Shown here piece after piece: positions 1,634-61,777 of a DNA stretch of 64,000 nt. The stretch lies in assembly GCA_918797485.1 (NCBI GenBank), contig CAKKNE010000001.1, positions 6,138,001 to 6,202,000 of the forward strand, in the 5' to 3' direction. The stretch's first letter is position 1. Every line of letters begins with the position of its first letter. The notes under the pieces are model-generated. The model was not told the DNA's origin. It worked only from the letters and a program-made list of their open reading frames with translations, and ran no database searches. A program made the position numbers and the translations under genes. This DNA comes from Pelagomonas calceolata. Taxonomy: Eukaryota.

Positions 1634-1656
1634 GCTAGTGTCTTACTAATGCTAGC
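1634..1656 (+). promoter_or_regulatory. Recurrent intergenic motif CTAGTGTCTTAC-N-GCTAG, copy 1
   Basis: gCTAGTGTCTTACtaatGCTAGc lies between divergent starts at 1583(-) and 1706(+). Confidence 0.65.
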
Positions 1657-1705
1657 AACCTGGGAAAGCACCGACCGAGGATTTCATTGTACACGGCCGC
1701 AAACG

Positions 1706-3040
1706 ATGCATGCGTTGCTTCTTGGATCGCTTTTGGTCATATCCAGACGATGCACAGCGATCACGACCATCGCTAAGGACGACGCCGTCCGACGAGACAC
1801 AGCACTGACCCGAAGCGCCGGCGGCGCGGCCGCGGACGCCAGCGCCGCGGACGCAGCACTGACCCGCAGCACCGGCGGCGCGGTCGCGGACGCCAGCGCC
1901 GCGGACGCAGCACTGACCCGCAGCACCGGCGGCGCGGTCGCGTGGCGACCCGTTCCGTCGTTTGCGATCAATTTGGACCTCGCGCCCGAGCAACGCTACG
2001 TAGGAGTGGCGACGCGTTTCAATTCATCCATCTGGCGCTTCTACGACAAGCTCTTCGCGCACGACGCCGCGTTGACCAATGCGCTGTACGCCATGGTCGA
2101 TAAGAGAGGCCCGGAGCCCGACAGCGTGATGAGAGGTGAGATCGAAGGCATCGTCGCGACGACGCGCCTGCCCGCGAAGTTCGTCCAGGGCGTGCAAGCC
2201 CTCTACGAACTGCAGACGCTCATGGTGCCCGTGGTAAATGGCTCGTCGCGCCAGGACCCGCTGCCGCGCCGGTACCGCGCGCTGGAGAGCTGGCCGCTGC
2301 GCGGCCCGGGCTGCACGGGTATTGTTGCGACGAACACCGCGGACGGAACGGTGGTCCACGCTAGGAACATGGACCTGGCTCCCGTGAAGTTGTTCGCGCC
2401 GCTCGTCTACGAGGGCGTCTTCACGCGGAACGGATCGGTCGTGTTCCGCGCCGAGATGGTCGCGGGCTACGTGTCGCTCCTCACGGGGTACCGACCCGGC
2501 GCCTCCGGATACGTCGTCGAGCGGAACACGCGCTACCCGGCGCACAAAGGAGGCAACCGCGAGATGCTCGATAATCTGCTCGAAGGCGTGCCGTTGTCGG
2601 GCTGGACGCTGCGGCGCATGATCGAAAGCATCTCGACCTACGACGAGGCGCAAGCCAAGGTCCAGAGCGCGCATTTCGTCGCGACGGAGTATGTTGTCAT
2701 GTCGGGCGTCCGTCGAGGCCACATCATCGCGCGGGACCCTGCTAGCGTCGCGCACCTGTCGACGCTCGGCCCGTCGGCCTACGTGATCGTGACGAACTTT
2801 GACTACTGGTGGCACGACGTGAGGGAGTATTTGGACCCGACGGGCGGCCACCTCGGGCTCCCGCGGCGCGTCGCGGCGCAGCGCATCCTGAACGCGTCCC
2901 TGAACACCGGCCTCGCGCTGACGCCCGGATTGCTGAACGCGACCATCTCGGCGGACGGCGTCCTCGCGGACACGATCTTCCAGGCCGTCGCCGACGTCGA
3001 GGTAGGTCTGTGGTCGATCGCGCAGCCGGTGCTGCCGTGA
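1706..3040 (+). CDS. Acid ceramidase / N-acylethanolamine acid amidase (Ntn-hydrolase), secreted or lysosomal
   Basis: Signal peptide; alpha-subunit motif INLDLAPEQRY; catalytic start CTGIVA...VHARNMD; VTNFDYW. Confidence 0.85.
   Translation: MHALLLGSLLVISRRCTAITTIAKDDAVRRDTALTRSAGGAAADASAADAALTRSTGGAVADASAADAALTRSTGGAVAWRPVPSFAINLDLAPEQRYVGVATRFNSSIWRFYDKLFAHDAALTNALYAMVDKRGPEPDSVMRGEIEGIVATTRLPAKFVQGVQALYELQTLMVPVVNGSSRQDPLPRRYRALESWPLRGPGCTGIVATNTADGTVVHARNMDLAPVKLFAPLVYEGVFTRNGSVVFRAEMVAGYVSLLTGYRPGASGYVVERNTRYPAHKGGNREMLDNLLEGVPLSGWTLRRMIESISTYDEAQAKVQSAHFVATEYVVMSGVRRGHIIARDPASVAHLSTLGPSAYVIVTNFDYWWHDVREYLDPTGGHLGLPRRVAAQRILNASLNTGLALTPGLLNATISADGVLADTIFQAVADVEVGLWSIAQPVLP
1800..1942 (+). 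repeat. 54-bp coding tandem repeat, ~2.6 copies (ALTRS[A/T]GGA[A/V]ADASAADA)
   Basis: Near-identical units start at 1800, 1854 and 1908 with cagcactgaccc. Confidence 0.9.
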
Positions 3041-3084
3041 AGTTGTCTGTGACTTCTAGTTTTAAGAATTTTTTAGCTGTTAAT

Positions 3085-11704: not shown

Positions 11705-11734
11705 TGTTTACTTAGGTTATTAAGTTGTCATGGT

Positions 11735-14068: not shown

Positions 14069-14121
14069 GCCGCAGCTTCGGGCAGCCCACGCTCTGCGAT
14101 CGTTGCAAAAAAAAGTTGAGC

Positions 14122-14144
14122 CTAGTGTCTTACTGCACGCTAGC
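14122..14144 (+). promoter_or_regulatory. Recurrent intergenic motif, copy 2
   Basis: CTAGTGTCTTACtgcacGCTAGc lies between divergent starts at 14068(-) and 14226(+). Confidence 0.65.
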
Positions 14145-14225
14145 ACCGTTTTTTGGCGCAGCGCACCAGCAGCTCGCTAGCCGCCAGCGACAGATTTCCG
14201 GACAAAACAGCATCAATCAGGAGCC

Positions 14226-20690: not shown

Positions 20691-20713
20691 GCTAGTGTCT
20701 TACAGCCGCTAGC
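20691..20713 (+). promoter_or_regulatory. Recurrent intergenic motif, copy 3
   Basis: gCTAGTGTCTTACagccGCTAGc lies ~165 bp upstream of ATG 20877. Confidence 0.65.
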
Positions 20714-24555: not shown

Positions 24556-24633
24556 GATGATCTATAGAGTATTGATTGATGATGATGATGGAGGACGTTT
24601 GCCCGCTCCGAGAGGATCGACTTTTTTGCCGGC

Positions 24634-24655
24634 CTAGCGGCATGTAAGACACTAG
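24634..24655 (-). promoter_or_regulatory. Recurrent intergenic motif, copy 4 (reverse)
   Basis: CTAGCggcatGTAAGACACTAG lies between divergent starts at 24555(-) and 24762(+). Confidence 0.65.
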
Positions 24656-24761
24656 TGCAGCTCGGCGTCTCACCTCAATTTAGTCTGCGAGTAGAGCGCG
24701 CTTCTTGCCCTGTAGACTCTCGTTTGACGCTCAATCGCTGCATACACTCGCTGAACCAGCA

Positions 24762-26321
24762 ATGATGCTCGCGCGTGCATCACTGCGACCGCTGCGCTGC
24801 GCAGCCAAGCGCTCCCTGGCCGTCGACGCCGCGCAGCTAGAGGACACCGCAGCCCAGCTCCTCAAGCGCCACGGCGTGGCAGGCGTGCAGGCCGCAGTGA
24901 TCGATGCCGGAGAAGTCATCCCTGTGAACGGAGGCCTGGCCGACGTCGCAAGCGGGACGCCGGTCGCCTCTACCACGCTCTTCCAGCTCGCGAGCTTATC
25001 AAAGCCGGTCGCGGCGCGCCGCGCGCTCACTCGCTTCGACGCCGACGCGGCCGTAAACCCATTGCTGGCCGCGCACGGCTCGCCCTGGCGCATCGAGGGC
25101 CAGGACGGCTGGGGCGACGCCGTCACCGTCTCCCACTTGATCGACCACTCGGCGCTCGGCCTGCACTACGTGCCGGGCGTCCCGGAAAGCGAACCAAAAC
25201 CTTCGTCGCTCGAGCTGGTCTCGGGCCGGGCGGAAGAGTGGGGCTACGCGGCCGTCGAGTGCGTCAAGAAGCCGGGCTCGGCCTTTGCGTACTCGGGCGG
25301 CGGCTTCCTCGTGCTCCAGCACCTCCTCGAGTGCGCGCTCGGTCCCGAGAAAGCTTTGGCGCCGTGCGGCGGCCGCTTCGGCTACGAGCTGGACGGCGCG
25401 CCGACCGGCGAGAGCCTCGTCGACTTCGGCTTCGACGTGCCGGAAGGACAGACGCACGCGGTCGGTTATCGCGACGGCGGCGAGGTTCTGGGTAGGCTCT
25501 GGTTCCCGCCGTTCGCCGCCGGCGCCATGGGCACGGCGAGCGGGCTGGGCGAGTGGCTCTGCGGGCTATCAAAGGCGCACCGGGACCGCGGCGACGGCAT
25601 GCACGCCGTCGCCAGGTTGATGCTCGAGCGGCGCAGGGATTTGGGGGCCGGCGCCTTCATGGGCGCGCGCATGGGCCGCGGGATTTTTATCAGGGATGTC
25701 GCGTCCGGTGCTGTTCCGCGCGAATATTGAGCTCGACGTTGACGCCATCGACGGCATCGTTCCATGCAGGCGATCCGCGGAGCCCGGACCGGTGGATGCT
25801 CCACCAAGCGGCCAACGACGGGTTTACGGCTGTGTGGAAATCAAAATTTTACGGCGCGTTCGTGCTGAATCATCGCGTCGTCCTCCACGCCATCGACGCG
25901 ACGCCTGCTCGATGGCGTGGCGATGCTGGTTCCTCGCCGCTCGACCGAGCCAGGACGGCCGCGCCATCGCCGAGAAATGACAAGTGAAGAATTTTCGGGT
26001 GCACCCGACACACTTTGATTTTTACACAGGTTTAGGGGATTGTTTCTGGTCTGCTTCGATGGTCCTTCCGCCGCGAACGGTCCCCGCGGCCTCGTCGTCC
26101 TGTCAAATGGCGATAACGACGCCATGCTCTTCAACATGGCCATGGCGCGGGCCATGCTCGAAGCGCTCGAGCCGGCCGGCTTTGACCTGGGCCGCGTCCC
26201 GGACGTCGCCGCGGGCTTCGACACCGCGGGCATGCGCCAGGAGGAGATCGTGAACCTCGGCTTCAAGGGACTCGTCCTGGACGCGTTCGCGGAGGCGCCC
26301 GGGTTCGAGCTCGGGAAGTGA
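24762..26321 (+). CDS. Beta-lactamase-family serine hydrolase, probably mitochondrial; introns 25708-25769 and 25822-26029
   Basis: SxxK motif (ASLSK) and FAYSGGG. Splicing gives ...VASG|DPRSPDRWMLHQAANDG|FRGLFLVCFDG...LVVLSNGDN. Arg/Ala-rich N-terminus. Confidence 0.8.
25830..26029. mobile_element. Introner element (200 bp) forming intron 25822-26029 (+)
   Basis: TIRs CTGTGTGGAAATCAAA / TTTGATTTTTACACAG match 14/16. The 8-bp TSD gtttacgg / gtttaggg matches 7/8. GT comes from the TSD and AG from the TIR; splicing restores the frame. Confidence 0.9.
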
Positions 26322-26407: not shown

Positions 26408-27976
26408 CTAGTACCCGCCTCCCTTCACGGCCTGGCAGTAGCACGGGTAGGTGAAATCACAAGGCACGTCGTTCCATACCGTACCATCGTTCCACTTGAT
26501 CGTACAGTCCTCGCCGCCAAAGTTGGGGTCGTTGTTGGGTTCTTGGGGCGGACCCGCGTCCCAATTCGTGTACGACGACGTACAGCCGTCCTCCCAGACA
26601 AACTCGCCTTCCGTATCCTTGTCATTGTAGGCGATCCAGCCGGAATAGTCCCGTTCTAGCTTTATGGCGCTCTCGAGCGCCTCGTCGACAGCCCTCGAGG
26701 TGATGCACGGCATCCGGAGGCCCTTCTTCTCGCACGCCTTTTTGCACTGTTTGTACGTCATGTCGCTGTCGTGGAGCGAGAAGGAACACGTGCCGCACGT
26801 GAGCTTACACGCCTCGTACGCGGGGACGCCGTCTTCCGACACGCGCTGCGAGCATCGCTTTTCGACCTTGTCCGGCTCGCTAGCGACGTGGTCACACCCC
26901 TTTTCACCCTTTTCACCCGCGTCGTATTTCCAAGATTCGTCATCTTCGCATCCTCCCGAGCCAGAGGGTTTGCGCGTCGGCTTGTACGTGGGGGCGTATC
27001 CTCCTGGCGAGGTAGGTTTCTTCGTCGGCTGGTACGTCGGCGAGCAATCGGGGTCGGGCCCGGGCCAGCGCGGGCATTCGCACGGCTCCGCCCGCTCTAT
27101 CTCGTAGCCGACGGTGAGGCAGCAGATGTTGTAGGGATAGCCGTCGTAGAAAGGATTCTTCTCGACTTCGCTGCGGCAAATCGTGTCGGCGTCCGTACAA
27201 TACACGCAGTCGTCGCAGTCGCCCTCGCATGCGGAGGGGCAGTACGCGTCTCCCGAGTAGCACCGCCGCGGGTCCTCGTCGTCGAAGCGAAGCTGCCGAC
27301 GCGCGACGTCGGTCTGGTGCTCGCCGATGCGGTGGATCGTCAGGTGGGCAGAGACGCCGCCCTCGGTCGCGCGGGCGGCGTGGCGCGTGTCGGCCGGGAT
27401 CACGAGGCCGTCGCCCGGCTCGAGCGTCACGACGTAATCATCGCCGTCGAACGTCCACGTCTTGGCCCCCGAGAGCTGGACGACGAGGATATCACCTAGA
27501 TCTTCGTGCGATGGGAGCGCAGCGGCGCCAGCCGTCGAGAGGTAGGCGTGGAGCAGCAAGCCTCCCTCAACTTCTGCCCGCCCATTCGTCTCGCCGAACG
27601 CCTCCGCTAGTTTCTTGACGCCAACAGGCCACGCGGTCTCGAGGTACTCGAACTGGAGCGTGATCGAAAGCGGCACGGGAGATTTAGTGAGGACGGCGAC
27701 CGCCTCCGCCGGGTCCGCGGGCAAGCCGGACTCTCGCAACGAAGCGACGACGGCATCGGCGACGCCGCCCGCGGCCTTCGCGTCGTTGTCGGCGTGGACG
27801 CGGAAGGCGAGGCCCGGCTTTTTGCCGGCGAACGGTTTCAGTAAGTCTTCGATCGAGACCGTGCTCGGTGCGGCTATATCACGATGGAGCGTCGGCGTGT
27901 CTGTCCCGTCGAGAAGGTGGAGACCTATCTCCGCGCGCGCCAGCAAAATTGTGATGCTGAGGGCAAATAATCTCAT
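26408..27976 (-). CDS. Secreted protein with a JmjC/cupin domain, Cys-rich/ShK-like segment and C-type lectin domain
   Basis: Signal peptide; LPSHEDLGDILVVQLSGAKTW...LEPGDGLVIPADTRHAA; ACKLTCGTC; WIAYND...EGEFVW...YTNWD...EPNN...EDC...WNDVPC. Confidence 0.8.
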   Translation of the reverse strand: MRLFALSITILLARAEIGLHLLDGTDTPTLHRDIAAPSTVSIEDLLKPFAGKKPGLAFRVHADNDAKAAGGVADAVVASLRESGLPADPAEAVAVLTKSPVPLSITLQFEYLETAWPVGVKKLAEAFGETNGRAEVEGGLLLHAYLSTAGAAALPSHEDLGDILVVQLSGAKTWTFDGDDYVVTLEPGDGLVIPADTRHAARATEGGVSAHLTIHRIGEHQTDVARRQLRFDDEDPRRCYSGDAYCPSACEGDCDDCVYCTDADTICRSEVEKNPFYDGYPYNICCLTVGYEIERAEPCECPRWPGPDPDCSPTYQPTKKPTSPGGYAPTYKPTRKPSGSGGCEDDESWKYDAGEKGEKGCDHVASEPDKVEKRCSQRVSEDGVPAYEACKLTCGTCSFSLHDSDMTYKQCKKACEKKGLRMPCITSRAVDEALESAIKLERDYSGWIAYNDKDTEGEFVWEDGCTSSYTNWDAGPPQEPNNDPNFGGEDCTIKWNDGTVWNDVPCDFTYPCYCQAVKGGGY

Positions 27977-28113
27977 GGTTTTCAGAGTCTGCCGAGCGAT
28001 CAGTCACGATGGCTACGTCACGGCGGCGACTACGCAAGATTAGCAGATCCTTTAGGTATAGAGTTCAGACTACTTAAGTCTGCACGGCAAATGCTAGGCA
28101 AAAATCTGGCTAT

Positions 28114-28134
28114 CTAGCGTCGTAAGGCACTAGC
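28114..28134 (-). promoter_or_regulatory. Recurrent intergenic motif, copy 5 (reverse, 1 mismatch)
   Basis: CTAGCgtcGTAAGGCACTAGc lies between divergent starts at 27976(-) and 28288(+). Confidence 0.55.
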
Positions 28135-28287
28135 AAGAAGCAACACGAGAGCAGCCCCGACTCAGCCGGACTCAAGCCGGTCGTTCTGGCTCACTAGGCG
28201 CTGGCGGAGTGGTCGCTCTGGCTGGCTCACTCCCGAGGCAGCCCCAGCAGCCCCAACTCAGTCTGGCGCAGTGATTGTAATACAGCC

Positions 28288-31040: not shown

Positions 31041-31170
31041 CTTGTGAGACTGTCGGGCGTGCTGCGGGTAGTGGAGGCTGCCCGGAGCGTGCGAGGCGCA
31101 AACAAATGGCAGTGACCGCGAGTCCGAAGACGCGGACGCGTGCGTTCGCGCGACGCCGCGCGCAAATCTA

Positions 31171-31195
31171 GCTAGCGTGCGAGTAACATACTAGC
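31171..31195 (-). promoter_or_regulatory. Recurrent intergenic motif, copy 6 (reverse, 2 mismatches)
   Basis: gCTAGCgtgcgaGTAACATACTAGc lies between divergent starts at 31040(-) and 31349(+). Confidence 0.45.
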
Positions 31196-31348
31196 TTCGC
31201 GTCGAAGCCTGCGCGCGTTGTGCGTCGTTTCCGCGGCGCACGCAACGTACAGGTTGCGCATCACTTCGTACGAGCGCCGTACAACTGGCCCAGAGCGGTC
31301 GGGCAGCTTTCGGAGGCCCAACAGTTGACTGCAGACAAGCATATCAAA

Positions 31349-37644: not shown

Positions 37645-38583
37645 CTACCCCCGGGAAAAGGTCCTCGGCTGCAAAATTTCCTGGGCGCGGAGCACGTCTC
37701 GCGCGTTTCGCAGGGCTTTCTCTATCCCCGCTGCCGTCGGGTGCGCGCCCCCGAGTACACGCTGCGCGGTCCGTGCTGTCTCCTCGAGCGTCGTCACGGC
37801 CTCGCGGCGCTCGTCGAGCGTGGCGCCTCGCTTCTTGTAGAGCGCACACGCATAAATCCACTTCATCCTGAGCGTGAGTTCATGATTTTTCCCCAAAACG
37901 CGTCGTGTCACGGGTATCGCTTTGCGCGACAGTGATCTTGCTTCTTCGAAGCGCCCTAGTTCACTAAAGCTATTCGCGTAGTTGTAGGCCGAGGCTAGGC
38001 TCGACTCACCATCCTCGCCCGAGAGCCTGCAATGTCTGGAGTATACGTCTCCCAGTATGCGGTTGGTCTCTTCAAGCCGTCCAAGTTGGTGATACGAGTT
38101 CGCAAGACTGCCCAGCGCGACGAGCATGCTTTCTTCTGGCGCGCCAATGCGCCGCCGCGTAGCCAAACTGGCCTCTCTCACGGACAACGCGTCCTCGTAT
38201 TGCTTTGCCGCGGATAAAGCGCTCCCAAGCACGCCCATCGCAAAGAGCAGAATCTCGTCCGTCTCCGGCCGGCCCAGGTACGTCTTCCAGCACGCCCACC
38301 CGAGCGCGCATTTCACGCCGCCGTGGTACGTCTGCTCACACAGGCTACATTCTTGCCACCGACGAAACCTCTCATTCTTCGCCTTGATGTCCAAGTTGTT
38401 CTCCTCGGCCTCGTCGCACAAAATCTTTGCCTGCTCCGCCAGACACGAAACGTGCACAAAGCCCGCCGTCCCACGGCACGCACACCCGCGCACGAGGCCC
38501 TCCTTTGTTTTCCAATGGAGAGCTTGCGTGCAGATGTAGCACGTCTGGCCCTTCGTGTCCTCGGCGCACGCCTCGACCGTCAT
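37645..38583 (-). CDS. RINGv + kinesin-light-chain-type TPR protein, probably 5'-truncated
   Basis: CYIC...CACRGTAGFVHVSCL...WQECSLC followed by TPR repeats (RRVLGKNHELTL, RVLGGAHP). There is no upstream intergenic space. Confidence 0.7.
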   Translation of the reverse strand: MTVEACAEDTKGQTCYICTQALHWKTKEGLVRGCACRGTAGFVHVSCLAEQAKILCDEAEENNLDIKAKNERFRRWQECSLCEQTYHGGVKCALGWACWKTYLGRPETDEILLFAMGVLGSALSAAKQYEDALSVREASLATRRRIGAPEESMLVALGSLANSYHQLGRLEETNRILGDVYSRHCRLSGEDGESSLASAYNYANSFSELGRFEEARSLSRKAIPVTRRVLGKNHELTLRMKWIYACALYKKRGATLDERREAVTTLEETARTAQRVLGGAHPTAAGIEKALRNARDVLRAQEILQPRTFSRG

Positions 38584-38947
38584 AGCAGCCAACAACTACG
38601 CTGCATTGCTAGCGAAACTAGATCGCTTCAAAGAAACCAAGAAACTGCTGCGCAAAAATATTCCCGTGGCGCGACGCGTTCTCGGAGAGACTTGTCAACT
38701 TACGCTTTCGATGAGGTGGCTTTACTCGATGGCTCTCCACGAGGACCCCACGGCCACGCTCGACGATCTCCGCGAGGCCGTGACGACGCTCGAGTCCGTC
38801 GCAAAGTCGTATAAGCGCGTCCTTGGCGAATCGCATCCCGAGACGCCGAAGGTCCACAGCGTGCTGGAAATTGCACGTAACAAGCTCGCCCGCGCCTCCG
38901 AGTCGCCGGAGTCTTCGGCAGAACCGTCGCGCCACCGGGGCTCGTAA
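38576..38947 (+). pseudogene. 3' fragment of a paralogous TPR gene fused head-to-head with the previous gene
   Basis: AANNYA...IPVARRVLGE...ATLDDLREAVTTLE...RVLGESHP parallels the C-terminus of 37645-38583. It has no start codon or promoter. Confidence 0.7.
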
Positions 38948-44641: not shown

Positions 44642-45217
44642 ATGGACATGCCAACACGACTGCAGACTTCCATGCTCATCAGCGCCGCGCGCGTCACGCC
44701 CACGAAGCGGCGCCTCGCGTGGTCCCCAGACGCGGGGCAGCGCACGGTGTCGCCTTGGTCGAGTCCGGAAGCGGAGCGACTTGCACAGCGCCGCGCGGGC
44801 TGGCGCTACTACGCGAGCCCGGCGCCCCTGGACGCGAAGCCGGCCGCGCGGCCAGCCGCACCAGTGACGCCGAAACCCGCCGCGCCCGTCGTCACGCCGC
44901 GCCGGCGGCGAAAGACGCCGCGCCGGACTAAACCCGACGCCGCGCAAATGAGGCAACTCGAGAAGGGCTGGCTCCACCACGGCTCGCGCCACGCGCCGAT
45001 CGTCGACCGGCCCCCGCCGCGGTCGCCGCGGCGGTGGCGCAAATCGCCGTCGGTGCCCGACGAGGACGTGGCCTACGACGTCGAAGAAGAAGAATACGTC
45101 AAAATCCCGGTCGCGCTGTTCAAGAACCTGTCCAAGTACTTTGCGTGCGCCAAGCCGGATTTCGTGGAGCAGGCGCGGCCCCCGGACGACGAGGAAGAGC
45201 GAGTTATCGTGGGGTAA
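44642..45217 (+). CDS. Hypothetical Pro/Arg-rich protein (start uncertain)
   Basis: The ORF ends in a plausible acidic/hydrophobic tail. ATG options are 44402 and 44642. Confidence 0.45.
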   Translation: MDMPTRLQTSMLISAARVTPTKRRLAWSPDAGQRTVSPWSSPEAERLAQRRAGWRYYASPAPLDAKPAARPAAPVTPKPAAPVVTPRRRRKTPRRTKPDAAQMRQLEKGWLHHGSRHAPIVDRPPPRSPRRWRKSPSVPDEDVAYDVEEEEYVKIPVALFKNLSKYFACAKPDFVEQARPPDDEEERVIVG

Positions 45218-45456: not shown

Positions 45457-45459
45457 CCC

Positions 45460-45482
45460 CTAGCGTCCTGTAAGACACTAGC
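45460..45482 (-). promoter_or_regulatory. Recurrent intergenic motif, copy 7 (reverse)
   Basis: CTAGCgtcctGTAAGACACTAGc lies upstream of ATG 45790. Confidence 0.65.
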
Positions 45483-45789
45483 AAAGCAGCCATGACATTG
45501 TGGCTGTCACCGCTTTTGTGCTTCATCCAGCCGCGTTGTGGCACATAGAGCGCGAGTAGGACTCTGTTCGACTCCTGGCGTCACGCGAAACGAGTGCTGC
45601 GCTTCCGGCTGGGCCTGTGGCGGCTACAGCATTTCTAAAGGAAAAAAACAGCAAAACCGCAGCGCACAAACGCCGGGCGCAGCGCAACAAAAACGCCGGG
45701 CACGACGAGCCTTGCCTCCGCAACGCTTCGTAGCCTGTACCAGAGATCTCTTGGAGGTGTTGAGGGAGTGCCGCACCACACATTAAATT

Positions 45790-46392
45790 ATGGACGGCAT
45801 AACAGCATTGCAAAAACACCTCGTCCGCGTAAAACTCGAGCACGCCGAGCGCGAGGCGGCCTTGGAGCGGACCGTCGCCGAGTTGAGAGGCGAAAACGAC
45901 GAGCTCAAGGCCGCGCTAGACGACGCGGCCGACGAGTTGGACCTGTGTTGGGCCCACGTGCACCAGCTGCGCCTCGAGACCACCACAAAATTCCAGGTCG
46001 AGGAGCGCGACGACTGGCGCGCGTTAGTGCGAAGCGTCCAGGAGGACCGCCAGCGGCTCCAGCAGGAGAACGCGCGGCTCCAGGCGCTCGTCGCGCCGGG
46101 GCCGGCCGCGCGAACTACCTCGGCTCCGCTTCCCGACGCGCTGACGTCGCCGCGGCCGCCGCGCCCGACGCGGCCGCCGCCGCCGCCGCCCGTCGAGACG
46201 CCGCGCCTCGCAAAGAAGCCGCGCGAGCGCGCGCCGTCGCCCCGCGCGACGGCCTACGCGCTCACCGGCACGCCGCGGAAGCGCAAAATCGTGCTGCCGC
46301 GGCCGAGCCCGTCAGCGCGCGAGCCGTGGTTCCTGTGGGTGCTGCTCTTCGGGCGGCCGCTCGACATCGACGGGCCGGTACTGTGTGTATGA
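45790..46392 (+). CDS. Coiled-coil hypothetical protein
   Basis: Heptad-like N-terminal 100 aa and a Pro-rich tail. Confidence 0.65.
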   Translation: MDGITALQKHLVRVKLEHAEREAALERTVAELRGENDELKAALDDAADELDLCWAHVHQLRLETTTKFQVEERDDWRALVRSVQEDRQRLQQENARLQALVAPGPAARTTSAPLPDALTSPRPPRPTRPPPPPPVETPRLAKKPRERAPSPRATAYALTGTPRKRKIVLPRPSPSAREPWFLWVLLFGRPLDIDGPVLCV

Positions 46393-46440: not shown

Positions 46441-47969
46441 TCAGTAGAGCTGCTCGACGCCCGACCCCTTCGCCTTCGCGTCGGCGCGCCGCTCAGCCCG
46501 CCGGAGCAGCAGGGGGATCGGCACCGCTAGTAGAGCGCACGCCGCGTTCGTCAGGAAGGGCAGCCCGCCCGGGAAGCGGCGGAAGCCGCAGGACGCCGCG
46601 AAGAGCGAGCCCGAGACGACTGGAGTGAAGATGCGCGCCGCGGCGCGCGTCGACCTGTGCGGAAATTTTACGGTGCGTCCTGAATCGCCGCGTCGACCTC
46701 CACGCCATCGACGCGACGCACACTGGTTGATTTCCACACCGGCGTCGACTGGATCAGCGCTAGGTTCTTCGCGCGCGCGTCGGCCGTCGGCGACGTCCTT
46801 GCTACCAATGTGGCTGTGGACGTGTCCGAGATGCCGGCGCCCGCGCGGTTTATCAGGTAAAAGAGCGAGTGGAGCGGCTGCGCTCGCACGATGCTTTGCG
46901 AAGCCATGCCCAGCGACAGCGTGAGCAAGCCGAAGCACGACGTCAGGTGCGGGCCGATGCGCCTGACTAAGGTCGGAAAGAGCACCTGGGCCGCGATCGT
47001 CGTCAGCGCGCCGGCCGAGAACGTCGCTGATAATTGAGGTTGATCATACCCCATAAACTTGGGCGCGAACAACCCGTAGCAGTAGACCGACAGCGTCAGC
47101 GACCAGCCGACGACGAGCGCGATGGACCGGAGCGCGAACTGCGCCGACACGCCGGGCAGGATCCCGGGCGCCGGCTTCGTAGGCGCGACTTGCTTCTGCT
47201 CAACCTTGAGCGCCGGCTCGTCCTGGGACGCGATTGCTTGTGCTTTTGCGGCTGTTGCTTGGAAGGACCTGGCCAGCACGCCCAGCACGCCGGCCGCGAA
47301 GACCGAGGCCGTCAAGAAGACCGCGCGTAATCGAAAAGCCTGGGGCACGCCCGCCGCCGCGAAGGCCGACATGAGCAGGGCGGCGCAGGACGGCCCGACG
47401 ACCACGGCCATCTGCGACGACGCCGCGACGCGCGCGAGGGCCGCGGGCGCTTGCGCCGGCGCCACGAGCTCCGTCGCCGCGGCCTGGGCCACGGGCACGC
47501 TGGCGGCGAAGGCGCCGCACAGGAAGCGGCAGACGACGATCGCCGCGACCGACGGCGACATGGCGATGCCGACGTTGCCCAGCGTCGCGCCGGCCAAACA
47601 GAGGCAGAGCGTCTGGCCGCGGCCGCCCGCGCCGCCCGACCGTCGCACCAGCAACGGGCAGCAGACCATCTGGGCCACGCTAAAGAACGACGTCGCGAGG
47701 GCCACCTCGACGGGCTTCGCGCCGAGGCGCGTCAGGTGCAGCGGCAGCGTCGCAATCGCAATACCCTCGCCGATCATCTGCGCAAACACGCTCAGCGTGA
47801 CCGGCAGCAGCGCACGCGGCAGCGGCGCGTCGGCGTCGGCCTCGATCGCGACGGCCGCGGCCCGCGGCGGCGCGAGCAACTTCGGCGGTTTTGCCAGCGG
47901 GGCGAGGGCTGGGCCTCGGAAGGCGTATGTGCATTTTAATGCTGTTGCGAGGAGTAATAGTAGGCGCAT
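46441..47969 (-). CDS. MFS transporter (TetA/DHA1-like), probably plastid-targeted; intron 46749-46655
   Basis: Signal+F leader; about 12 TM; CRFLCGAFAASVPVAQA and VVGP motifs. Splicing gives LIQ|STRAAARIFTPVVSGSLF. Confidence 0.85.
46655..46741. mobile_element. Introner element (87 bp) forming intron 46749-46655 (-)
   Basis: Perfect 8-bp TSD GCGTCGAC at 46647-46654 and 46742-46749. Ends CTGTGCGGAAAT / ATTTCCACACCG. The interior aligns with the 25830 element. Confidence 0.9.
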
Positions 47970-48914: not shown

Positions 48915-48938
48915 GCTAGTGTCTTACAGGCCGCTAGC
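48915..48938 (+). promoter_or_regulatory. Recurrent intergenic motif, copy 8
   Basis: gCTAGTGTCTTACaggccGCTAGc lies ~145 bp upstream of ATG 49082. Confidence 0.65.
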
Positions 48939-49081: not shown

Positions 49082-50188
49082 ATGTCTGCCAAATTAGCAT
49101 TCTTCCTGGCCGTGGGCGCCGCAGCCGTCAACGTGAAGACGGAGGAGCGCACGCTCATTCATCCGGAGCGCCGCGAACAACTGAACAAGATCAAGGCCAT
49201 GGCCACGACCTGGGAGGCGCGCGCTGGTCGCTGGGCGCGCGAGGCGCCGGGCGCCAGCGCTCCCGTGCTCGGCCATTTGGGAGACAACAAATTAAACGTG
49301 GCTGCCGCTAAGGAACGCGGCGAGGTCGTCGAATTCGTGCCGAAGCTGGTCAACCCGATCCCGGACTCCTTCGATTCGGCCAAGGAGTGGCCCAAGTGCG
49401 CCAAGCTCATCAACGACATCCGCGACCAGAGCAATTGTGGCTGCTGCTGGGCCTTCGCCGGCGCCGAGGCGGCGTCGGACCGCATGTGCATCAGTACTGA
49501 CGGCGAGAAGAATCTCCCTATCTCTGCGCAGGACGTCTGCTTCAATTCGAACGTGAACGGCTGCAACGGCGGCCAGATCACGACGCCCTGGACCTACATC
49601 CGCTGGCGCGGCGCGGTGAGCGGCGGCCAGTACAACAACACGGGCCCCTTCGGTAACATGGGACTCTGCTCGAACTGGGGCTTCGGTCATTGCCACCACC
49701 ACGGTCCCCAGAGAGATGATCCCTACCCCGACGAGGGCGCCGAGGGTTGCAAGTCGGAAAAGTCTCCCCCGGGCCCCACGAAGTGCGACAACTCGGCCAA
49801 GGGGTCCCACGCCGACTTCAAGGGGGACAAGTACAAATTCCACGGCACGACGGAGACGGCGTCGGGCGAGGAGAAAATTCAACGCATGATCATGGAGGGC
49901 GGCCCCGTCGAGACGGCCTTCACCGTGTTTTCGGATTTTGAGGACTATGCGGGCGGAATTTACCAGCGCACGACGGGCAAGCCGGCAGGCGGCCACGCCG
50001 TCAAGATTGTTGGGTGGGGCGTCGAGAACGGCACGAAATACTGGAAAGTAGCGAACAGCTGGAACCCCTACTGGGGCGAGAAGGGCTTCTTCCGCATCGT
50101 CCGCGGCAAGAACGAGTGCGGCATTGAGGACCAGGTCACGGGCTCGCCGTCCGGCGCGAAATGGACGAAGGCGTCCGAGGAGCTCTAG
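49082..50188 (+). CDS. Cathepsin B-like cysteine protease (C1A)
   Basis: IPDSFDS...WPKC, IRDQSNCGCCWAF, occluding-loop CHHH, GGHAVKIVGWG and YWKVANSWNPYWGEKGFFRI. Confidence 0.92.
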   Translation: MSAKLAFFLAVGAAAVNVKTEERTLIHPERREQLNKIKAMATTWEARAGRWAREAPGASAPVLGHLGDNKLNVAAAKERGEVVEFVPKLVNPIPDSFDSAKEWPKCAKLINDIRDQSNCGCCWAFAGAEAASDRMCISTDGEKNLPISAQDVCFNSNVNGCNGGQITTPWTYIRWRGAVSGGQYNNTGPFGNMGLCSNWGFGHCHHHGPQRDDPYPDEGAEGCKSEKSPPGPTKCDNSAKGSHADFKGDKYKFHGTTETASGEEKIQRMIMEGGPVETAFTVFSDFEDYAGGIYQRTTGKPAGGHAVKIVGWGVENGTKYWKVANSWNPYWGEKGFFRIVRGKNECGIEDQVTGSPSGAKWTKASEEL

Positions 50189-50227
50189 GCCGTACTGTAT
50201 ACATTGCTTGTTAAAAAACACACAGAA

Positions 50228-51919
50228 CTAGGCCAACGTCCCCGCCCGGCGCATCTCGTCCAGCAGGCGAAGATGCTTGTCGACGGGCGCGATAGCGTGG
50301 GCCACGGCCATCCCCGACCCGCACACCGCTGGGACACCTATACCGGGAAACGTCGAGTCGCCGCAGCAGTAGAGCCCGTCGACCGGCGACGCGTGGCCGG
50401 GGAAGGTTTGCTTTCCAGCAGGCCAAGCGCTCCCATAAGTTCCTTCCGGCCGCCGCAGGAACCGTTCATGCGTGAGCGGCGTCCCGATGGACGAATAAAC
50501 AGCGCGTTCGCGGATGTCCGGGATAAACTCTTCCACGGCCTTCCACAGCACCTCTCCCCTCTCCTCTTTCTTCTCCCGATACGCCTCTCGGTCCAAACCG
50601 ACCCAGTCCGCGTAGGGCTCCGTCGCCGGCAAGTAGGCGTGCAGGACGTGGTGGCCCGCCGGCGCCGCGTCTTTGTCTAGCACCGACGGAATCGAGATAA
50701 ACACGAGGTTATCATTCGCAGTCACATCTGACCAATCCCGGACAATGATGTGGTGCACCGCCAGCGGATCCAGGCCCGTCGCGTCGAAGCCGCAGTGCAG
50801 ATGTAGAAATGAGGGCGTCTTCGGCGCCGTCGCGTCGAGGCACGACCCCACGGTGCCGTGCACCGACGCCGGAAGGAGCCTCGCCGTCGCCCAGACCGGC
50901 GCGTTCGACACGACGTGGGTCGCGCGGCGCTCGGAGCCGTCCTTGAGTCGCGCGCCGACGGCGGCGCCGTCTTCCACAATGATCTCGTCGACGTGCGCCT
51001 TTGTCAAGATTTCTCCGCCGTGCTTCGTGATGGCCCGCTCGAGGGCCGCGGCGATCGCGGGGGAACCGCCCATGGGGACGTCCATGACCGCGCCGTCGGC
51101 GAAGAACTCCTTGATCATGAACGACACCGCCGCCGCGGACGTCTCCGTGACCGGAAGACCCGAGAGCGCGAAAGCTAGAAAGTCGAACCAGCGGTAGACC
51201 AGCGACGTGGGCTTGATGCCGGCCGCGTCGAGCACGCGCGAGAAAGGCCCCGACGGGTCGACTCCTTTGAGCAGGAAATCCGCGCCGAAGCGCGCCAGGA
51301 GCGTCGGATCTAGCTTCGGCACGTAGCTCGACACAGCAGTTTGTAAGGCGCCCACATCGGCCCGGAGGGCGATCGGCGGGACGCCAGCGACGAGCGCGGC
51401 GAGCGCCTCGTTCGCGGCGAGGAGTTGTCGCCAGTCGGCAGCCGCCGACGCGCCGCCGAGGCGTCGCAGCTCCGCCTCGAAGGCCCGCTTGTCGCCGGAC
51501 TTGACGCGAAAGACGCCCTCGGGCACGTACATGGTCCACTCGTTGTATGACTTCCATTCCGGCGTCTCGCCGACCGCGTCCAGTACTTGGCGCAGCGGGT
51601 TCGACGACGGCGCCGAGCAACCGCTAAACAGCGACGGCCCGCTGTCGAAGTGAAACGTCCCAGCAGCCGTGCGGCGCTCGAAGCCGTGCGCGCAGCCACC
51701 GATTCGGTCGTGCGACTCGCAGACGGTGACCGAGTAGCCGTACTGTGCTAGCAGTGCGGCTGCGCTGAGACCACCTAAGCCGGAGCCGATGACGACGCAA
51801 TCGCTGGTGCCGTCGCGTTTTGCTGCGGAGAGTTGTGGTGCACGCGTCGAATGCGTCGTCGGTGTGATGAATGCATCGCTTGTGCATGCCACGAGCAGCA
51901 GTACGACGGATGACAGCAT
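50228..51919 (-). CDS. Carotenoid isomerase (CRTISO)-like FAD oxidoreductase, plastid-targeted
   Basis: Bipartite leader (SDA-F); VVIGSGLGGL, FDSGPSLF, TPLTHERFL...GTYG and GDSTFPGIGVPAV. Confidence 0.88.
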   Translation of the reverse strand: MLSSVVLLLVACTSDAFITPTTHSTRAPQLSAAKRDGTSDCVVIGSGLGGLSAAALLAQYGYSVTVCESHDRIGGCAHGFERRTAAGTFHFDSGPSLFSGCSAPSSNPLRQVLDAVGETPEWKSYNEWTMYVPEGVFRVKSGDKRAFEAELRRLGGASAAADWRQLLAANEALAALVAGVPPIALRADVGALQTAVSSYVPKLDPTLLARFGADFLLKGVDPSGPFSRVLDAAGIKPTSLVYRWFDFLAFALSGLPVTETSAAAVSFMIKEFFADGAVMDVPMGGSPAIAAALERAITKHGGEILTKAHVDEIIVEDGAAVGARLKDGSERRATHVVSNAPVWATARLLPASVHGTVGSCLDATAPKTPSFLHLHCGFDATGLDPLAVHHIIVRDWSDVTANDNLVFISIPSVLDKDAAPAGHHVLHAYLPATEPYADWVGLDREAYREKKEERGEVLWKAVEEFIPDIRERAVYSSIGTPLTHERFLRRPEGTYGSAWPAGKQTFPGHASPVDGLYCCGDSTFPGIGVPAVCGSGMAVAHAIAPVDKHLRLLDEMRRAGTLA

Positions 51920-52375
51920 CGTCAGCGTGTGAGACCACCCCAAATACGAATCACAGGCGTCGTAGCGCTGCTCGAAGCGCGTTGCTTCGCTGCTCTGGTG
52001 TCGTAAGATGTCTGAAAAGCAGCTGGCAAGGCGTGATTGGCAACAGCAGCCGTGTCAGTGGCGGACACAAATCGACGCGAAACCCGTTTTGCCGCATTTG
52101 GTTTGATTTTCGACGCGACGTGCAGCTGTTTGAGTATCCTTCAGTTCGCTAATGGTCCAAAGAGACAAATAGGACGACTCCTGGGGGGTGAAAAAATTAA
52201 TTTCTGGATGTCGCGATACTGACGACGGCACCATGGCGGGCGCGTCGATGGAAACCTGTCAATTCGTGGTCCTGAGGTCTCCCTGGGGTCGCCTAGGGTC
52301 GGTACTAGACGTGCGCAATCGCCTACACCGCATGCGCGGGCGCTTCCATCGGTGGATACATATCAGTACAGGTCC

Positions 52376-53656
52376 TCAGCCACAACATTGGCTGGAGCAC
52401 AAGTCCGCCAACTTTTCGATCCGAGCTCTCTGGGGAGCTCCAAGTACGGGCGCATGCGGCGCGGGCGACAACCCACCACCAGACCTATCCCAGAGGGCGT
52501 CCGCGAGCCGATCTACATCCGAAAAAAGTAGACAATTTGGACCCGATGGCGCCCCGTTCCCGTCAAAAACGTCAATTACCCGAGGGCCCCCAGTAGTCGC
52601 CGTAGCGGTCTCGTTGGACCCCATACTACCCCAACGATAGTCAATTACAAGTATATGACATCTACACCGCGAGAAGGGTACTTTTGGCTGCCCACGCTCG
52701 GGACGTGAACATCTTGATCTGGACCTCGCGTAAGTCGGTCGGTCATGAAACAAATGATCGCGTTATGGTCCATGGTGATGGTACACGGGCTGATGGTCGC
52801 AGGTCCAAGTATGCTGCTCGTCTTTGATAGATCGTGGGCCCGGGAGACCGACGACCCGCGCCGAGCATCTTTGGGTCTCGGAGCAATGTAGTACATGTTC
52901 AGCCCGGTCGGATGGCCCATCCCATCAAAAAAGCGCCTGAAACGCAAATTTATTTTATAACTCACCGGTCTGGGGCCAATTCAGTGCCCCGCGTACGCAC
53001 CGTCGTCCGCGGAGAACGGGCAAGTCGGTCGATTGTGAATAGAACAACGGCGTTATGGTCCATCTGGGTGGTGGCGTCGCTGATACTCGCGGGTCTAGGT
53101 TATTTGCCCGGTATCATCTAAACGCGCGGTACCAAAGTCGCCGATTCGCGCGGCTCTAACGGAGCACCTAAAATAGATGAGTATTTGTTCAATCGGCCTA
53201 GATGGACTCTACCACCAACAAACGGAAGGAAACGAACATAAACTTGGGAGTTGTCTAGTAGAATTCTTTTCCCGCCCTCCGAGCGCGGGCCGTCGGCTCC
53301 GGTTCCGTCGATTGTGTATGAAAACTGGGCTGGAGTTGATATGATGTATCATTTGGACGGTAGAAGGCGCCGTCAATCGCTGGTGTATTTTGGCGAGCCG
53401 CGAGACCTAGTGATCTAGCGTATCGACATACTAGGAATCCGTATATATGTATGTGTGTGTGTGTGTGTGTATACATACATAGTATACATGTATAGAGGCA
53501 TAGGCGGATGGCTTTTGAAAACAGACCTCTCCGACTGACCCCCGAATAGTGAAGTTCAAAGCTTAATTCCCGCTCTGGGCTCGGCGGCACTTCTAAGGAG
53601 GAGTTGGACGACGCCGCAGCGCAGATAGACTCATAGACTAATCCATCACGCATCAT
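52376..53656 (-). pseudogene. Decayed low-GC coding relic with tandem serine-recombinase(resolvase)-like repeats
   Basis: Fragments YARS, RPASIS...NAVVLFTIDRLARSP, NAIICFMTDRLTRGP...RGVDVIYL and LLFSDVDRLAD, separated by stops and frameshifts. Confidence 0.45.
53452..53470. repeat. (TG)n microsatellite
   Basis: tgtgtgtgtgtgtgtgtgt within TA/TG-rich sequence. Confidence 0.9.
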
Positions 53657-53749
53657 CTTACGCGAATGACGTGGGGTAGGGAGTAGGGAAGGGGAGTGGG
53701 TTCGCCCGAGAGCCCACGAGAAAACCGCGACTCGGTTGTCAACTGCGAC

Positions 53750-54403
53750 TCAGTTGTCGTTTTCTTCGCCCGCGGCGGCCAAAAGACCAGGAAAGATCAC
53801 GACGCCGAAGAACAGGCCGCACGCGATGATGATCGAATACAGCTGGAAGTAATACAGCTGTATGTACTCGTAGCGCGCGAAGGCCATGTCCTTCGACTCG
53901 TAGGTCACGCCGCCATGCGTCACCGAGACGTCGTTCACGTTCTTCTTGCGGTAGAACGCGATAGCCTGCTTCATGTTCTTGCGCGTGAGCATGTTCTTGC
54001 CGCCGCGCGTGGCGCGCGCGTTCGTGGCCTCGCTGCCGGACTCGTAGCCCTCCACTAATTTTCTATGGGTGTTCTTGCTCTCGCGGTCGACGCGCGAGCC
54101 CGGCCTCAAGACCAGGCTGCCGAAGAGGTCCGTGTCCGTCTTGCTCGCCACGAATAACCCCGTCGTGAGCGCCGCGAAAAGCGCCGCGACGACCAGGAGC
54201 ACGAGCCACGGCCGTTTGCCGACGACGTTCTTGCCAAACCAATAAAAGGCGCGCTCGCCGGGGCCGCGGTCCGCGTCCGCCGCGAAACTTGGCTTGGTGT
54301 GCGAGAGCTCGCGCGACGCCGTCGTGGGGTAGCTCGCGTCCTCGACGGACTTCACGGCCTCGACGTCGGCCTTGGTTTCCTCGGCGACGTCGGCGGCGGA
54401 CAT
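53750..54403 (-). CDS. Internally deleted NPC1/Patched-family protein (first TM and luminal start fused to the last TM)
   Basis: N-part VGKRPWLVLLV...PGSRVDRE. C-part MAFARYEYIQLYYFQLYSIIIACGLFFGVVIFPGLL resembles the NPC1 terminal helices. Only 217 aa. Confidence 0.6.
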   Translation of the reverse strand: MSAADVAEETKADVEAVKSVEDASYPTTASRELSHTKPSFAADADRGPGERAFYWFGKNVVGKRPWLVLLVVAALFAALTTGLFVASKTDTDLFGSLVLRPGSRVDRESKNTHRKLVEGYESGSEATNARATRGGKNMLTRKNMKQAIAFYRKKNVNDVSVTHGGVTYESKDMAFARYEYIQLYYFQLYSIIIACGLFFGVVIFPGLLAAAGEENDN

Positions 54404-54735
54404 TTTTCTGGTGTTACCAGCGTCGTCTGCCGTCGCTGACTAGCGTGCGCGTCCGCAAGCTCAGCTTCTGGTATGCTCTGAGAGTTTCTATCGCTCCCAA
54501 CGTTGGCCGTGAGTTTTCTTTGGTTATCGCGATTTGCGTCGTATCTCAGAGAACTCGAAAGCGCTCTCACAATCCAACCTAAGCTCCTCGCTGGGTAGCA
54601 CGAGGATACCAAAAGTCGTGGGCAAAGGTCCCCCAGCCAGGCCAGCCATTCGCCAGACGCATCCGACCGCTTCCCGTCGCAACACGCGCTGCAGATACCT
54701 CTCTCGCGGAAAACAGAGGTAAACGCGGGGGCTAG

Positions 54736-54758
54736 GCTAGCGACTGTAAGACACTAGC
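54736..54758 (-). promoter_or_regulatory. Recurrent intergenic motif, copy 9 (reverse)
   Basis: gCTAGCgactGTAAGACACTAGc lies between divergent starts at 54403(-) and 54922(+). Confidence 0.65.
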
Positions 54759-54921
54759 AAGCAAGTAAGCTTGGCTGAACTCGCATAAAACGAGCATATT
54801 ATTAGCCTAGACCTGGTTCTGGAGACAGCATTCATCAACCCTTCGACCGTTGCGACCAACCCTTCATCGCTGCGACCGGTGAGGGAGCAGCCAGGCACAC
54901 AGCACATTGAGCACAACACCA

Positions 54922-57842: not shown

Positions 57843-57869
57843 AATGTGTAATTGTATTACGTTGTAAAA

Positions 57870-58716: not shown

Positions 58717-59009
58717 GCTTTGAGCAACAATGCTGTGATTTTGACAGCTTTTGTGCACAATTGAGTTATCGGTCAAGGGCCATAGAAGCGGTCCATTTTC
58801 TCACTCGGAGGGCACACTATGATAACGACCGACTTCTCCTTACGCCGATGAAGCAATTATGCCGCGAGACGCTGCCGCGGAGCGCATTTGACTGAGAAAC
58901 CCGTTTTGTTTCACGGCGGCGCCGCGCGCGCTGGACGTACACGCAGGGATAATAATGAGGACCCATAAAATACAACAAAATAAACAACAAACATTACGAA
59001 AAGGAACAG

Positions 59010-59594: not shown

Positions 59595-59759
59595 GGTGTT
59601 GGGCCGCGGAGCCGATGCAGCGGTGTTAAGCGTTGTTTTCGAGTCGTGCTGCTGCCGCACACGCGTGGTTTACCGCGTTTTGATCCGTGCGCCACGGCTG
59701 TGTCCAGACTTCAGGACTGCTGAAGAGAGTTGCTGAAGGCTGGAGAGCAGCTGTGCTGC

Positions 59760-59968
59760 ACGCGACGCGGCAAGGACTATACGTATCGGTGAGCCCCGCT
59801 CGTGCCCGCAAAAAGCGAGCACTTGAGACCTGCACGCGTGCCGCGCGTAACCGCTGTGCTCCACGAGTGAGCTGAGGAGAGTGCAGGCTGCACTTGTCGC
59901 ACACGCGCAACGCGACGCGGCAAGGACTAATACGAATCGCTGAATCTATCGTGCCGCGTAACCGCTTT
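59760..59968. repeat. Local duplication in the divergent GNAT/LipB spacer
   Basis: ACGCGACGCGGCAAGGACTA occurs at 59760 and 59910; gtgccgcg(cg)taaccgct occurs at ~59838 and 59951. Confidence 0.75.
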
Positions 59969-59985
59969 CCAGTGCCAGAGCATCG

Positions 59986-60810: not shown

Positions 60811-60945
60811 GTCTAGACCACCATGACGTGTTTTTATGCGATGGGGGAGCGATGGGGTTCGACGTGCAAGTGACGCGCCGTGGAGGCGCGCCCGCAAGCA
60901 ATGAAGGGGCAGTTGTTGGGGGAACGGCATGGTTGGGGGTCAGCT

Positions 60946-61189
60946 TCACGACGACGTCACGGTGGACGTGTCAGAGCTCTTTGGGGGCTTCTTCTTCTGC
61001 GACTTAGCTTTTTCGCGTTCTTCCTTCGCGGCGGCCACTTCGTCCTCCATCTGTTTCGAGCGCTCCTTCTCATATTTGATAGCGAGTTGGGCGATGGACG
61101 CAATCTCGTACTCGAGCTGTTTTTCGGTGCGCGTCACGAGTTCTTCCTTCCAGTTGGGCTGGCGATGCTGGATGATGAGACGGCCGTTT
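60946..61189 (-). pseudogene. Orphan 3' fragment of a gene with a charged coiled-coil tail
   Basis: NGRLIIQHRQPNWKEELVTRTEKQLEYEI...KKKPPK...* has an in-frame stop immediately upstream and no ATG. Confidence 0.45.
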
Positions 61190-61675
61190 CAAAAAATCTA
61201 CGACGACGGCAACGCGTACAAGTGCTTCCCGAACGCGACGCGCGCCGCCTGCGACACGCTCAACGGCACGGACATCGCGGGCCGCTGGTGCGTCCTCAAC
61301 GGCACCTACACGCTGATCGGTCCCCTCTGCGATCCCGACGTGACGGAGTGCGACGAGATACGCCAGCGCCTCAAGCAGACCTGCGAAAAACCCTACCAGT
61401 TCGACGTCGCCGAAGGGGTATACACAGGCCTCGACGGGACGGACGTCGCCAACGGCACCTTTTGCATCGTCGAAGGGACGCGGGCCGTCGTCGAACTTTA
61501 TGCTTACGGCGCCCCCTGTCCAGGTGTCACAATCCGCACCGATGGATCCAATGCTGTCTGCATCGTGAACCTGTCCCCGGACGATCCGGTGGAGTCGAAC
61601 GCGGCGACGGGATCCGTCCCGCGCGCACTCCTCGTCCTTCTCCTCCCCGGGCTGTTGGCCCTCGGCTTGTTGTAG
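61184..61675 (+). pseudogene. Orphan 3' fragment of a Cys-rich, probably GPI-anchored surface protein
   Basis: Cys-rich with several N-x-T sites and a hydrophobic C-terminus (ALLVLLLPGLLALGLL*), but no signal peptide. The upstream sequence is the antisense of another gene fragment. Confidence 0.5.
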
Positions 61676-61754
61676 CTTCGCCCTTCTTGGTCCCCTGCCC
61701 CCCCGCTCCCGTCCTAAAACGAGTATACGGAGGCTTTCAAAAACCGAGGAGTTA

Positions 61755-61777
61755 CTAGTGTCTTACAAGCCGCTAGC
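61755..61777 (+). promoter_or_regulatory. Recurrent intergenic motif, copy 10
   Basis: CTAGTGTCTTACaagccGCTAGc lies upstream of ATG 62018. Confidence 0.65.

Follow-up and report, generated by a model that had tools for sequence, protein, structure and literature searches.

The 64,000-nucleotide stretch of the Pelagomonas calceolata contig CAKKNE010000001.1 analysed here (positions 6,138,001 to 6,202,000; "the window") carries ten copies of a bipartite DNA element, a 12-mer, CTAGTGTCTTAC, followed within a few bases by GCTAG, and all ten lie in intergenic DNA from which at least one gene starts. With a probability of roughly 0.6, we read the element as the putative site of a sequence-specific protein, or pair of proteins, in the middle of small, bidirectional promoters of RNA polymerase II (Pol II). 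The reading draws on the placement of the copies among the genes of the window, on the ends of transcripts mapped around them and on further copies in marine metagenomes. An earlier prediction, made from the letters of the window alone, had described the element as a dispersed semi-palindromic motif upstream of gene starts and had offered a general promoter or nucleosome-positioning element, or else a transposon footprint, as explanations.

Sequence and build of the element

The exact 12-mer is found 8 times in the window and 0 times in each of 100 dinucleotide-preserving shuffles, and it is the most frequent 12-mer of the window outside (GCC)n-type simple sequence. Allowing up to 2 mismatches to CTAGTGTCTTAC raises the number of matches to 10, where the shuffles have a mean of 1.35 and a maximum of 5; 8 of the copies are exact, 1 has one mismatch and 1 has two. 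The positions originally predicted, by which the copies are called below, hold for the exact copies (1635, 14122, 20692, 48916 and 61755 on the plus strand; 24644, 45470 and 54746 on the minus strand) as well as for the variants at 28122 (minus, 1 mismatch) and 31183 (minus, 2 mismatches), and correspond to one element per 6–8 kb. A second CTAG had been placed 3–6 nt after every copy; it is indeed there in all ten, at a distance of 4–7 nt, and it is the second half-site as a whole, GCTAG, that follows CTAGTGTCTTAC after 3–6 bases in 10/10. CTAG itself occurs in the window at half its expected frequency (104 observed, 207 expected). Placed in the same orientation, most of the window copies have TTG before and C after, and the sequence outside does not align.

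The consensus of the element is GCTTG-CTAGTGTCTTAC-(A)GGCC-GCTAG-CT, 27–29 nt in length with a spacer of 3–6. Its build is bipartite: each end contains a CTAG, the TGTCTTAC core is asymmetric, and spacer length differs between copies by up to 3 nt. This build suggests, as a guess from the letters, two DNA-reading modules that might be flexibly joined. The term "semi-palindromic" is apt for the two self-complementary CTAGs and for nothing beyond them: the inner ends of the two halves are, directly from the sequence, not inverted repeats of each other. A hairpin or cruciform, for which the GCTAG ends can pair, was considered and rejected, the single-stranded DNA fold being no better than that of shuffles in 5 of 6 copies (z-scores of -0.07, 0.27, -0.23, 0.83, -2.18 and 0.94). 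Rfam covariance models run over the whole window gave no family at gathering score. The copies are as follows.

1635 to 1655, plus strand: exact copy, spacer 4, in a 122-nt divergent gap between an ATG at 1583 (minus) and a likely ATG at 1706 (plus)
14122 to 14143, plus strand: exact copy, spacer 5, divergent junction 14069–14225
20692 to 20712, plus strand: exact copy, spacer 4, divergent junction; the spliced 5' exons of the minus-strand neighbour reach ~20343
24634 to 24655, minus strand: exact copy, spacer 5, divergent junction 24556–24761
28114 to 28133, minus strand: variant copy with 1 mismatch, spacer 3, divergent junction 27977–28287
31172 to 31194, minus strand: variant copy with 2 mismatches, spacer 6, divergent junction 31041–31348
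45460 to 45481, minus strand: exact copy, spacer 5, tandem junction; points away from the downstream plus-strand gene at 45790
48916 to 48937, plus strand: exact copy, spacer 5, tandem junction, upstream of the cysteine protease gene at 49082
54737 to 54757, minus strand: exact copy, spacer 4, divergent junction 54404–54921
61755 to 61776, plus strand: exact copy, spacer 5, tandem junction, upstream of the methyltransferase gene at 62018

An open frame overlapping copy 1635 has its first ATG within the element. A signal-peptide-like stretch begins at the second ATG (1706), before which the coding potential is negative; we therefore take 1706 as the likely start and count this copy as intergenic.

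Placement at gene starts

When the junctions between neighbouring genes are classified on a map of the 37 genes of the window, the element is distributed among them as follows.

Divergent junctions: 13 in the window, 7 with the element
Tandem junctions: 9 in the window, 3 with the element
Convergent junctions: 14 in the window, 0 with the element

The element is thus present at 10 of the 22 promoter-bearing junctions, or at about one gene in four. All ten copies fall within the 13.6% of the window that is promoter-bearing intergenic DNA (P ~2e-9), and counting by junction, promoter-bearing against convergent, Fisher's test gives p=0.003; the empty convergent gaps say little by themselves, since they are very short (854 nt in total). 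Within divergent gaps the element tends to lie near the middle, for example in 24556–24761, 27977–28287 and 31041–31348. The description of all ten copies as intergenic and near an ATG is borne out, the nearest ATG being 52–309 nt from base 1 of the element, as is their absence from coding sequence (0 copies) and from convergent junctions (0/14). The enrichment between divergent genes likewise stands, with a corrected count of seven copies, not six, the other three being tandem. Promoter association is upheld on both sets of copies: those of the window occur at gene-start junctions exclusively, and 0 of the 127 listed copies from metagenomes (see below) fall within coding sequence.

Pfam searches on the window neighbours agree with the earlier statement that the flanking genes are functionally unrelated; they encode a helicase, a DUF285 protein, a gamma-tubulin complex component, a beta-lactamase-like protein, a lectin/JmjC protein, a hydrolase, a MYND protein, a cysteine protease, an ABC transporter and a methyltransferase. 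This bears on the idea that the element is the site of a condition-specific transcription factor, serving for instance a diel, cell-cycle or nutrient programme, and so marks a large regulon. The restriction of the element to fewer than half of the promoter-bearing junctions would agree with such a factor, and a conditional activator or repressor would suit the expression of the flanking genes, some of which are nearly silent and others well expressed in the RNA runs used. Set against this, those genes share no common function, one gene in four would make an unusually large regulon, and the central position of the element between closely spaced divergent 5' ends suggests a structural role. We consider a regulon unlikely.

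Transcript ends around the element

To place transcripts around the window copies we used stranded poly(A) RNA reads (X21 and X22, ~6% of each run) and RNA contigs from three studies (X6, X10 and X11); splicing at introns and breaks between genes show that the contigs derive from transcripts, not from DNA. The mapping covers nine of the ten copies, all but 1635, and the assignment of RNA 5' ends was checked on the gene at 49082–50185 and the minus-strand gene at 50231–51919 (contigs end at 52056 and 52058). Distances are counted from base 1 of the oriented element.

Ahead of copy 14122: X10 contig of the plus-strand gene starts at 14169 (+47)
Ahead of copy 24644: contig of the minus-strand gene ends at 24615 (+40)
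Ahead of copy 31183: contigs of the minus-strand gene end at 31158 and 31151 (+36, +43)
Ahead of copy 48916: X10 contig starts at 48960 (+44)
Behind copy 24644: contig of the plus-strand gene starts at 24669 (-14)
Behind copy 31183: contigs of the plus-strand gene start at 31212 and 31219 (-18, -25)
Behind copy 54746: contigs of the plus-strand gene from three runs start at 54775, 54780 and 54787 (-18, -23, -30)
Behind copy 28122: pile-ups of plus-strand read 5' ends at 28144, 28165 and 28176 (-11, -32, -43)
Behind copy 45470: pile-up of plus-strand read 5' ends at 45519 (-38)

As estimated from contig ends and a few pile-ups, transcripts begin at +36 to +47 ahead of the element (4 copies) and at -11 to -43 behind it (5 copies). 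At two divergent pairs the opposing contig ends are 54 nt apart (24615/24669 and 31158/31212), with the element inside the gap. No initiator consensus is apparent, the 20 transcript ends collected having no letters in common.

Copies in marine metagenomes

Scanning marine metagenome contigs with the pattern CTAGTGTCTTAC-N3-6-GCTAG, which by its construction excludes spacers outside 3–6, gave at least 126 loci with unrelated flanks, holding 129 matches and 127 distinct copies; what follows refers to the copies and loci listed. The same pattern had 0 matches in the viral contigs scanned. Positions that the pattern leaves unspecified are strongly biased (G in 76% at -1, T in 70% at -2, T in 68% at -3, C in 83% at +1 and C in 95% directly before GCTAG), and matches to this 17-base pattern are therefore not chance. 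Spacers of 5 nt are the most frequent (78 copies), followed by those of 4 nt (35), 6 nt (8) and 3 nt (6). By megablast, none of the 126 loci is collinear with any window copy, and only 7 pairs of loci resemble each other, 2 of these pairs being overlaps within one contig. Since there is no independent recapture among some 127 copies, and since the window has one copy per 6–8 kb, we extrapolate to thousands of copies.

Around the element the GC content drops, to 0.54–0.58 within ~80 nt as compared with 0.63–0.67 further out. Within the first 20 nt downstream, TTTT occurs in 18%, compared with ~4% elsewhere, and TTTTGC, TTTTGG and TTTTTG are enriched downstream and GCTTG-type words upstream. In one homologous pair of loci (L016/L119) the element occupies the same position in both members, with a 1-nt difference in spacer length, and the intergenic DNA around it has diverged; this is weak evidence of retention because both loci were selected by the motif itself.

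The edges of the element are sharp, information content being close to zero beyond -5 and +2, so the suggestion that the flanks might extend into a shared repeat fails. Similarly, the transposon footprint of the original prediction, or a miniature inverted-repeat transposable element (MITE), is contradicted by the absence of flank information, of any excess of target-site duplications (TSDs) or terminal inverted repeats (TIRs), and of nearly all similarity between loci. In 120 copies, no TSDs were found over 315 combinations of boundary and length, the best reaching 6 against 2.4 in controls, and a comparison of the flanks for TIRs gave an identity of 3.1–3.4 of 12, against 2.9–3.4 in controls. 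A selfish or neutral short repeat, that is, a transposon relic or footprint that prefers open promoter DNA and has no function, would nevertheless account for the nearly letter-perfect copies and for a point of variable length between constant halves, each ending in CTAG, which is how a footprint might look. We hold it to be very improbable given the results on flanks, TSDs and TIRs, the seven similar pairs of loci as the sole ones, and a consistent spacing to transcript ends that would not be expected of relics. Decayed copies are scarce, amounting to a handful in the flanks of the metagenome loci, the inverted near-copy at L031 (below) among them.

Four further observations concern DNA next to particular copies. 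In L016/L119, further short blocks are retained ~60–110 nt downstream of the element, including CCCACGTGG and AGACAATTGTCAAGCGCAAACG, which from their letters are candidates for other cis-elements. Another four loci (L017, L055, L080 and L112) have in common a second block of ~35 nt directly after the element, GC-rich, with a TAAACGCG core and then GAGCCCTGGAAGCC-like letters, which may, judging by its sequence, represent a composite promoter or the promoter of a gene family. At L031 an inverted near-copy (1 mismatch) abuts an exact copy, ~10 nt upstream of it, and L074 has two exact copies in opposite orientation, at 1201–1222 and 1662–1683, 460 nt apart.

Orientation relative to genes

The neighbours of the metagenome copies were called by a codon log-odds score trained on the Pfam-supported genes of the window. 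Flanks are too short for a call at many loci, and both neighbours could be called for 37 copies. Relative to the oriented element, the calls on its left and right are as follows.

Left none, right none: 42 copies
Left none, right start: 22 copies
Left start, right start (divergent): 17 copies
Left start, right end (tandem, gene behind): 12 copies
Left start, right none: 12 copies
Left end, right start (tandem, gene ahead): 7 copies
Left end, right none: 7 copies
Left none, right end: 7 copies
Left end, right end (convergent): 1 copy
Within a coding frame: 0 copies

A stricter first pass had given 10 divergent, 6 versus 7 tandem, 1 convergent and 0 inside. The claim of orientation independence is supported as regards position, though not activity, by the tandem copies, the gene lying ahead in 7 and behind in 12. 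A directional reading, suggested by both clear tandem cases in the window (48916 and 61755, which point at the downstream gene), is ruled out by these metagenome copies together with copy 45470, which points away. The element therefore has no direction relative to the gene served, unlike a TATA-like core promoter element.

A long, near-invariant and orientation-independent word in presumed nucleosome-free intergenic DNA might serve something other than transcription and merely share the promoter gaps, for instance as a replication origin bound by the origin recognition complex (ORC), an insulator, or a loading site for cohesin or condensin; such sites can have this appearance. Origins usually need a far lower density than one per 6–8 kb, however, and the element avoids convergent junctions (0/14 in the window, 1/37 of the callable listed metagenome copies) and has transcript 5' ends only tens of bases away, so that we judge a function of this kind quite improbable.

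Other features of the window

The DNA of the window is 60–75% GC, with tightly packed, long and mostly intron-free reading frames of high third-position GC, and 25 of the 38 translated frames match Pfam families characteristic of eukaryotes, such as gamma-tubulin complex, Sad1/UNC, MYND finger, DEAH helicase, papain-type protease and ABC transporters. The RNA contigs reveal a few GT..AG introns, one of which, of 208 nt, bears a repeat. The Pelagomonas calceolata genome preprint gives 63% GC, 11% intergenic DNA and introner elements of ~210 nt, a description that the window resembles in gene density, in GC and in having ~210-nt introns with introner-like repeats.

Two spliced introns, 25820–26029 (plus strand, 208 nt) and 46646–46742 (minus strand, 95 nt), have a repeat in common. 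At both places RNA read depth is extreme and loose read ends number in the hundreds, which shows this repeat to be in many transcripts; it is also present in loci L049, L021 and L010, and it fits the ~210-nt introner elements reported for Pelagomonas in the preprint. A link between the introner-like repeats of the window and the promoter element was considered and rejected, as there is no sequence likeness. At 45050–45073 and 49235–49254, hundreds of reads match ~20 nt and then continue into other sequence, producing an apparent joint that skips 4161 nt; these reads probably come from an abundant transcript from elsewhere with short common stretches.

The region 51920–53752 is 1.8 kb without a convincing reading frame, has the lowest GC of the window (0.54), is covered by reads from both strands and shows variant letters at many positions (52634–53414), which suggests a multi-copy or non-coding transcribed element. 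The TPR-repeat gene at 37648–38794 has relatives at 71–78% DNA identity in four of the metagenome loci (L005, L036, L061 and L081) and therefore belongs to a multi-copy family.

Interpretation

In the mechanism we propose, a putative factor would read the two CTAG-containing half-sites and the asymmetric TGTCTTAC core, occupy the centre of a presumed nucleosome-free gap between gene starts, and place or permit pre-initiation complexes ~30 nt from its own centre on each side. In a genome of 65% GC where TATA and poly(dA:dT) are scarce, the factor would in this way fill the role that general regulatory factors or core promoter elements have elsewhere. The only hints, all of them indirect, that an abundant factor might keep nucleosomes off the element are the GC dip and T-runs around it and the transcript ends on both sides. 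The wider family of transcription-centred readings, which includes a site of the general-regulatory-factor type as well as a core promoter element, is in our estimate somewhat better than an even bet, a core-promoter role being the closest alternative. In its strongest form the proposal would make this near-invariant bipartite word of ~28 bp, in thousands of copies, the principal feature determining how bidirectional Pol II promoters are built in a pelagophyte-like lineage with a GC-rich, extremely compact genome; a lineage-specific multi-domain factor would read it, replace TATA and poly(dA:dT) and set starts ~30 bp to either side. This we advance tentatively, and would sooner bet against it than for it.

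A number of observations weigh against a protein site at the centre of bidirectional promoters. The element is not necessary for transcription, being absent from 12 of the 22 promoter-bearing junctions; one active bidirectional promoter free of it has minus- and plus-strand 5'-end pile-ups at 59706 and 59744, 38 nt apart. Nor is it sufficient, since the minus-strand genes at 26411–27976 (copy 28122) and 53753–54403 (copy 54746) are nearly silent. The untranscribed gap expected around it is missing at copy 20692, which is included in an X6 contig (20687–21597); another X6 contig (48263–50278) passes through copy 48916, position 45469 within copy 45470 is covered both by contigs and by 7 minus-strand reads, and the X6 contig of the genes upstream of copy 61755 ends at 61756. 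The start estimates are themselves weak: a contig end gives an outer bound only, each read pile-up consists of 5–6 molecules, and out of several hundred transcript pieces 16 and 24 were considered. Near-invariance is unusual for a transcription-factor site and could reflect recent copying, and all of the metagenome copies may stem from one species.

If the element is a protein site central to these promoters, a single word so easily recognised, found at roughly one gene start in four, would offer a handle for finding the protein that reads it. It would also anchor the annotation of transcription starts and bidirectional promoters in genomes and metagenomes, tag nuclear contigs of the lineage in ocean metagenomes, and supply a compact part for synthetic promoters in algae without genetic tools. 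Among long, nearly invariant promoter elements outside animals and fungi it would be an unusually clean case.

Comparison with known systems

To our knowledge, the promoter architecture of pelagophytes and of most other marine picoeukaryotes is essentially uncharted. A full-text search for the word and its reverse complement returned only synthetic padlock-probe, rolling-circle and unrelated papers, and a search of the literature on pelagophytes and their relatives, with supplements and subscription-only papers outside its reach, yielded no account of a motif of this kind. In the Pelagomonas calceolata genome preprint, its supplements excepted, the words "motif" and "promoter" each occur 0 times. 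The element is a putative lineage-specific promoter element, unusual in its length, its near-invariance and the share of genes at which it is found.

The TATA box and the initiator (INR) and flanking promoter region (FPR) of oomycetes are core promoter elements at a fixed distance from the start site. Like these, the element is found at a large share of unrelated genes, and its centre is ~25–35 nt from the transcript ends ahead of it. Unlike them, it is not AT-rich, occurs in either orientation, has more scattered starts behind it than ahead (-11 to -43) and is absent from more than half of promoters. In animals, the words read by CTCF, ZNF143 (SBS), BEAF-32/DREF and M1BP ("Motif 1") are long and conserved, lie at housekeeping-type or bidirectional promoters and have multi-domain readers. 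The element resembles them in being long, near-invariant and placed at bidirectional promoters; they belong to an unrelated lineage and, as far as we know, have no sequence likeness to it. With MITEs and excision footprints it has in common that it is dispersed, near-identical from copy to copy and bounded by two CTAGs, with a variable junction in mid-block, but it differs from them in lacking TIRs, TSDs outside and extended flank homology, and in being restricted to promoter gaps.

Sites of the general regulatory factors (GRFs) of budding yeasts, such as Reb1, Abf1, Rap1 and Cbf1, lie in the nucleosome-free regions of promoters (PMC2897762; see also PMC5052057 and PMC6310685), and the words are described as lineage-specific and as replacing poly(dA:dT) in some species (PMC2897762). 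The element resembles these sites in being a short DNA word at many functionally unrelated promoters, located in the gap between genes, and we count as a further likeness that its placement is independent of orientation and that it is common at divergent promoters. It is much longer than a yeast GRF site, at 27–29 nt, far less degenerate, and has a variable spacer, and we know of no evident resemblance to the Reb1 or Abf1 consensus. The general regulatory factor sites of budding yeasts are in our view the best functional analogue of the element.

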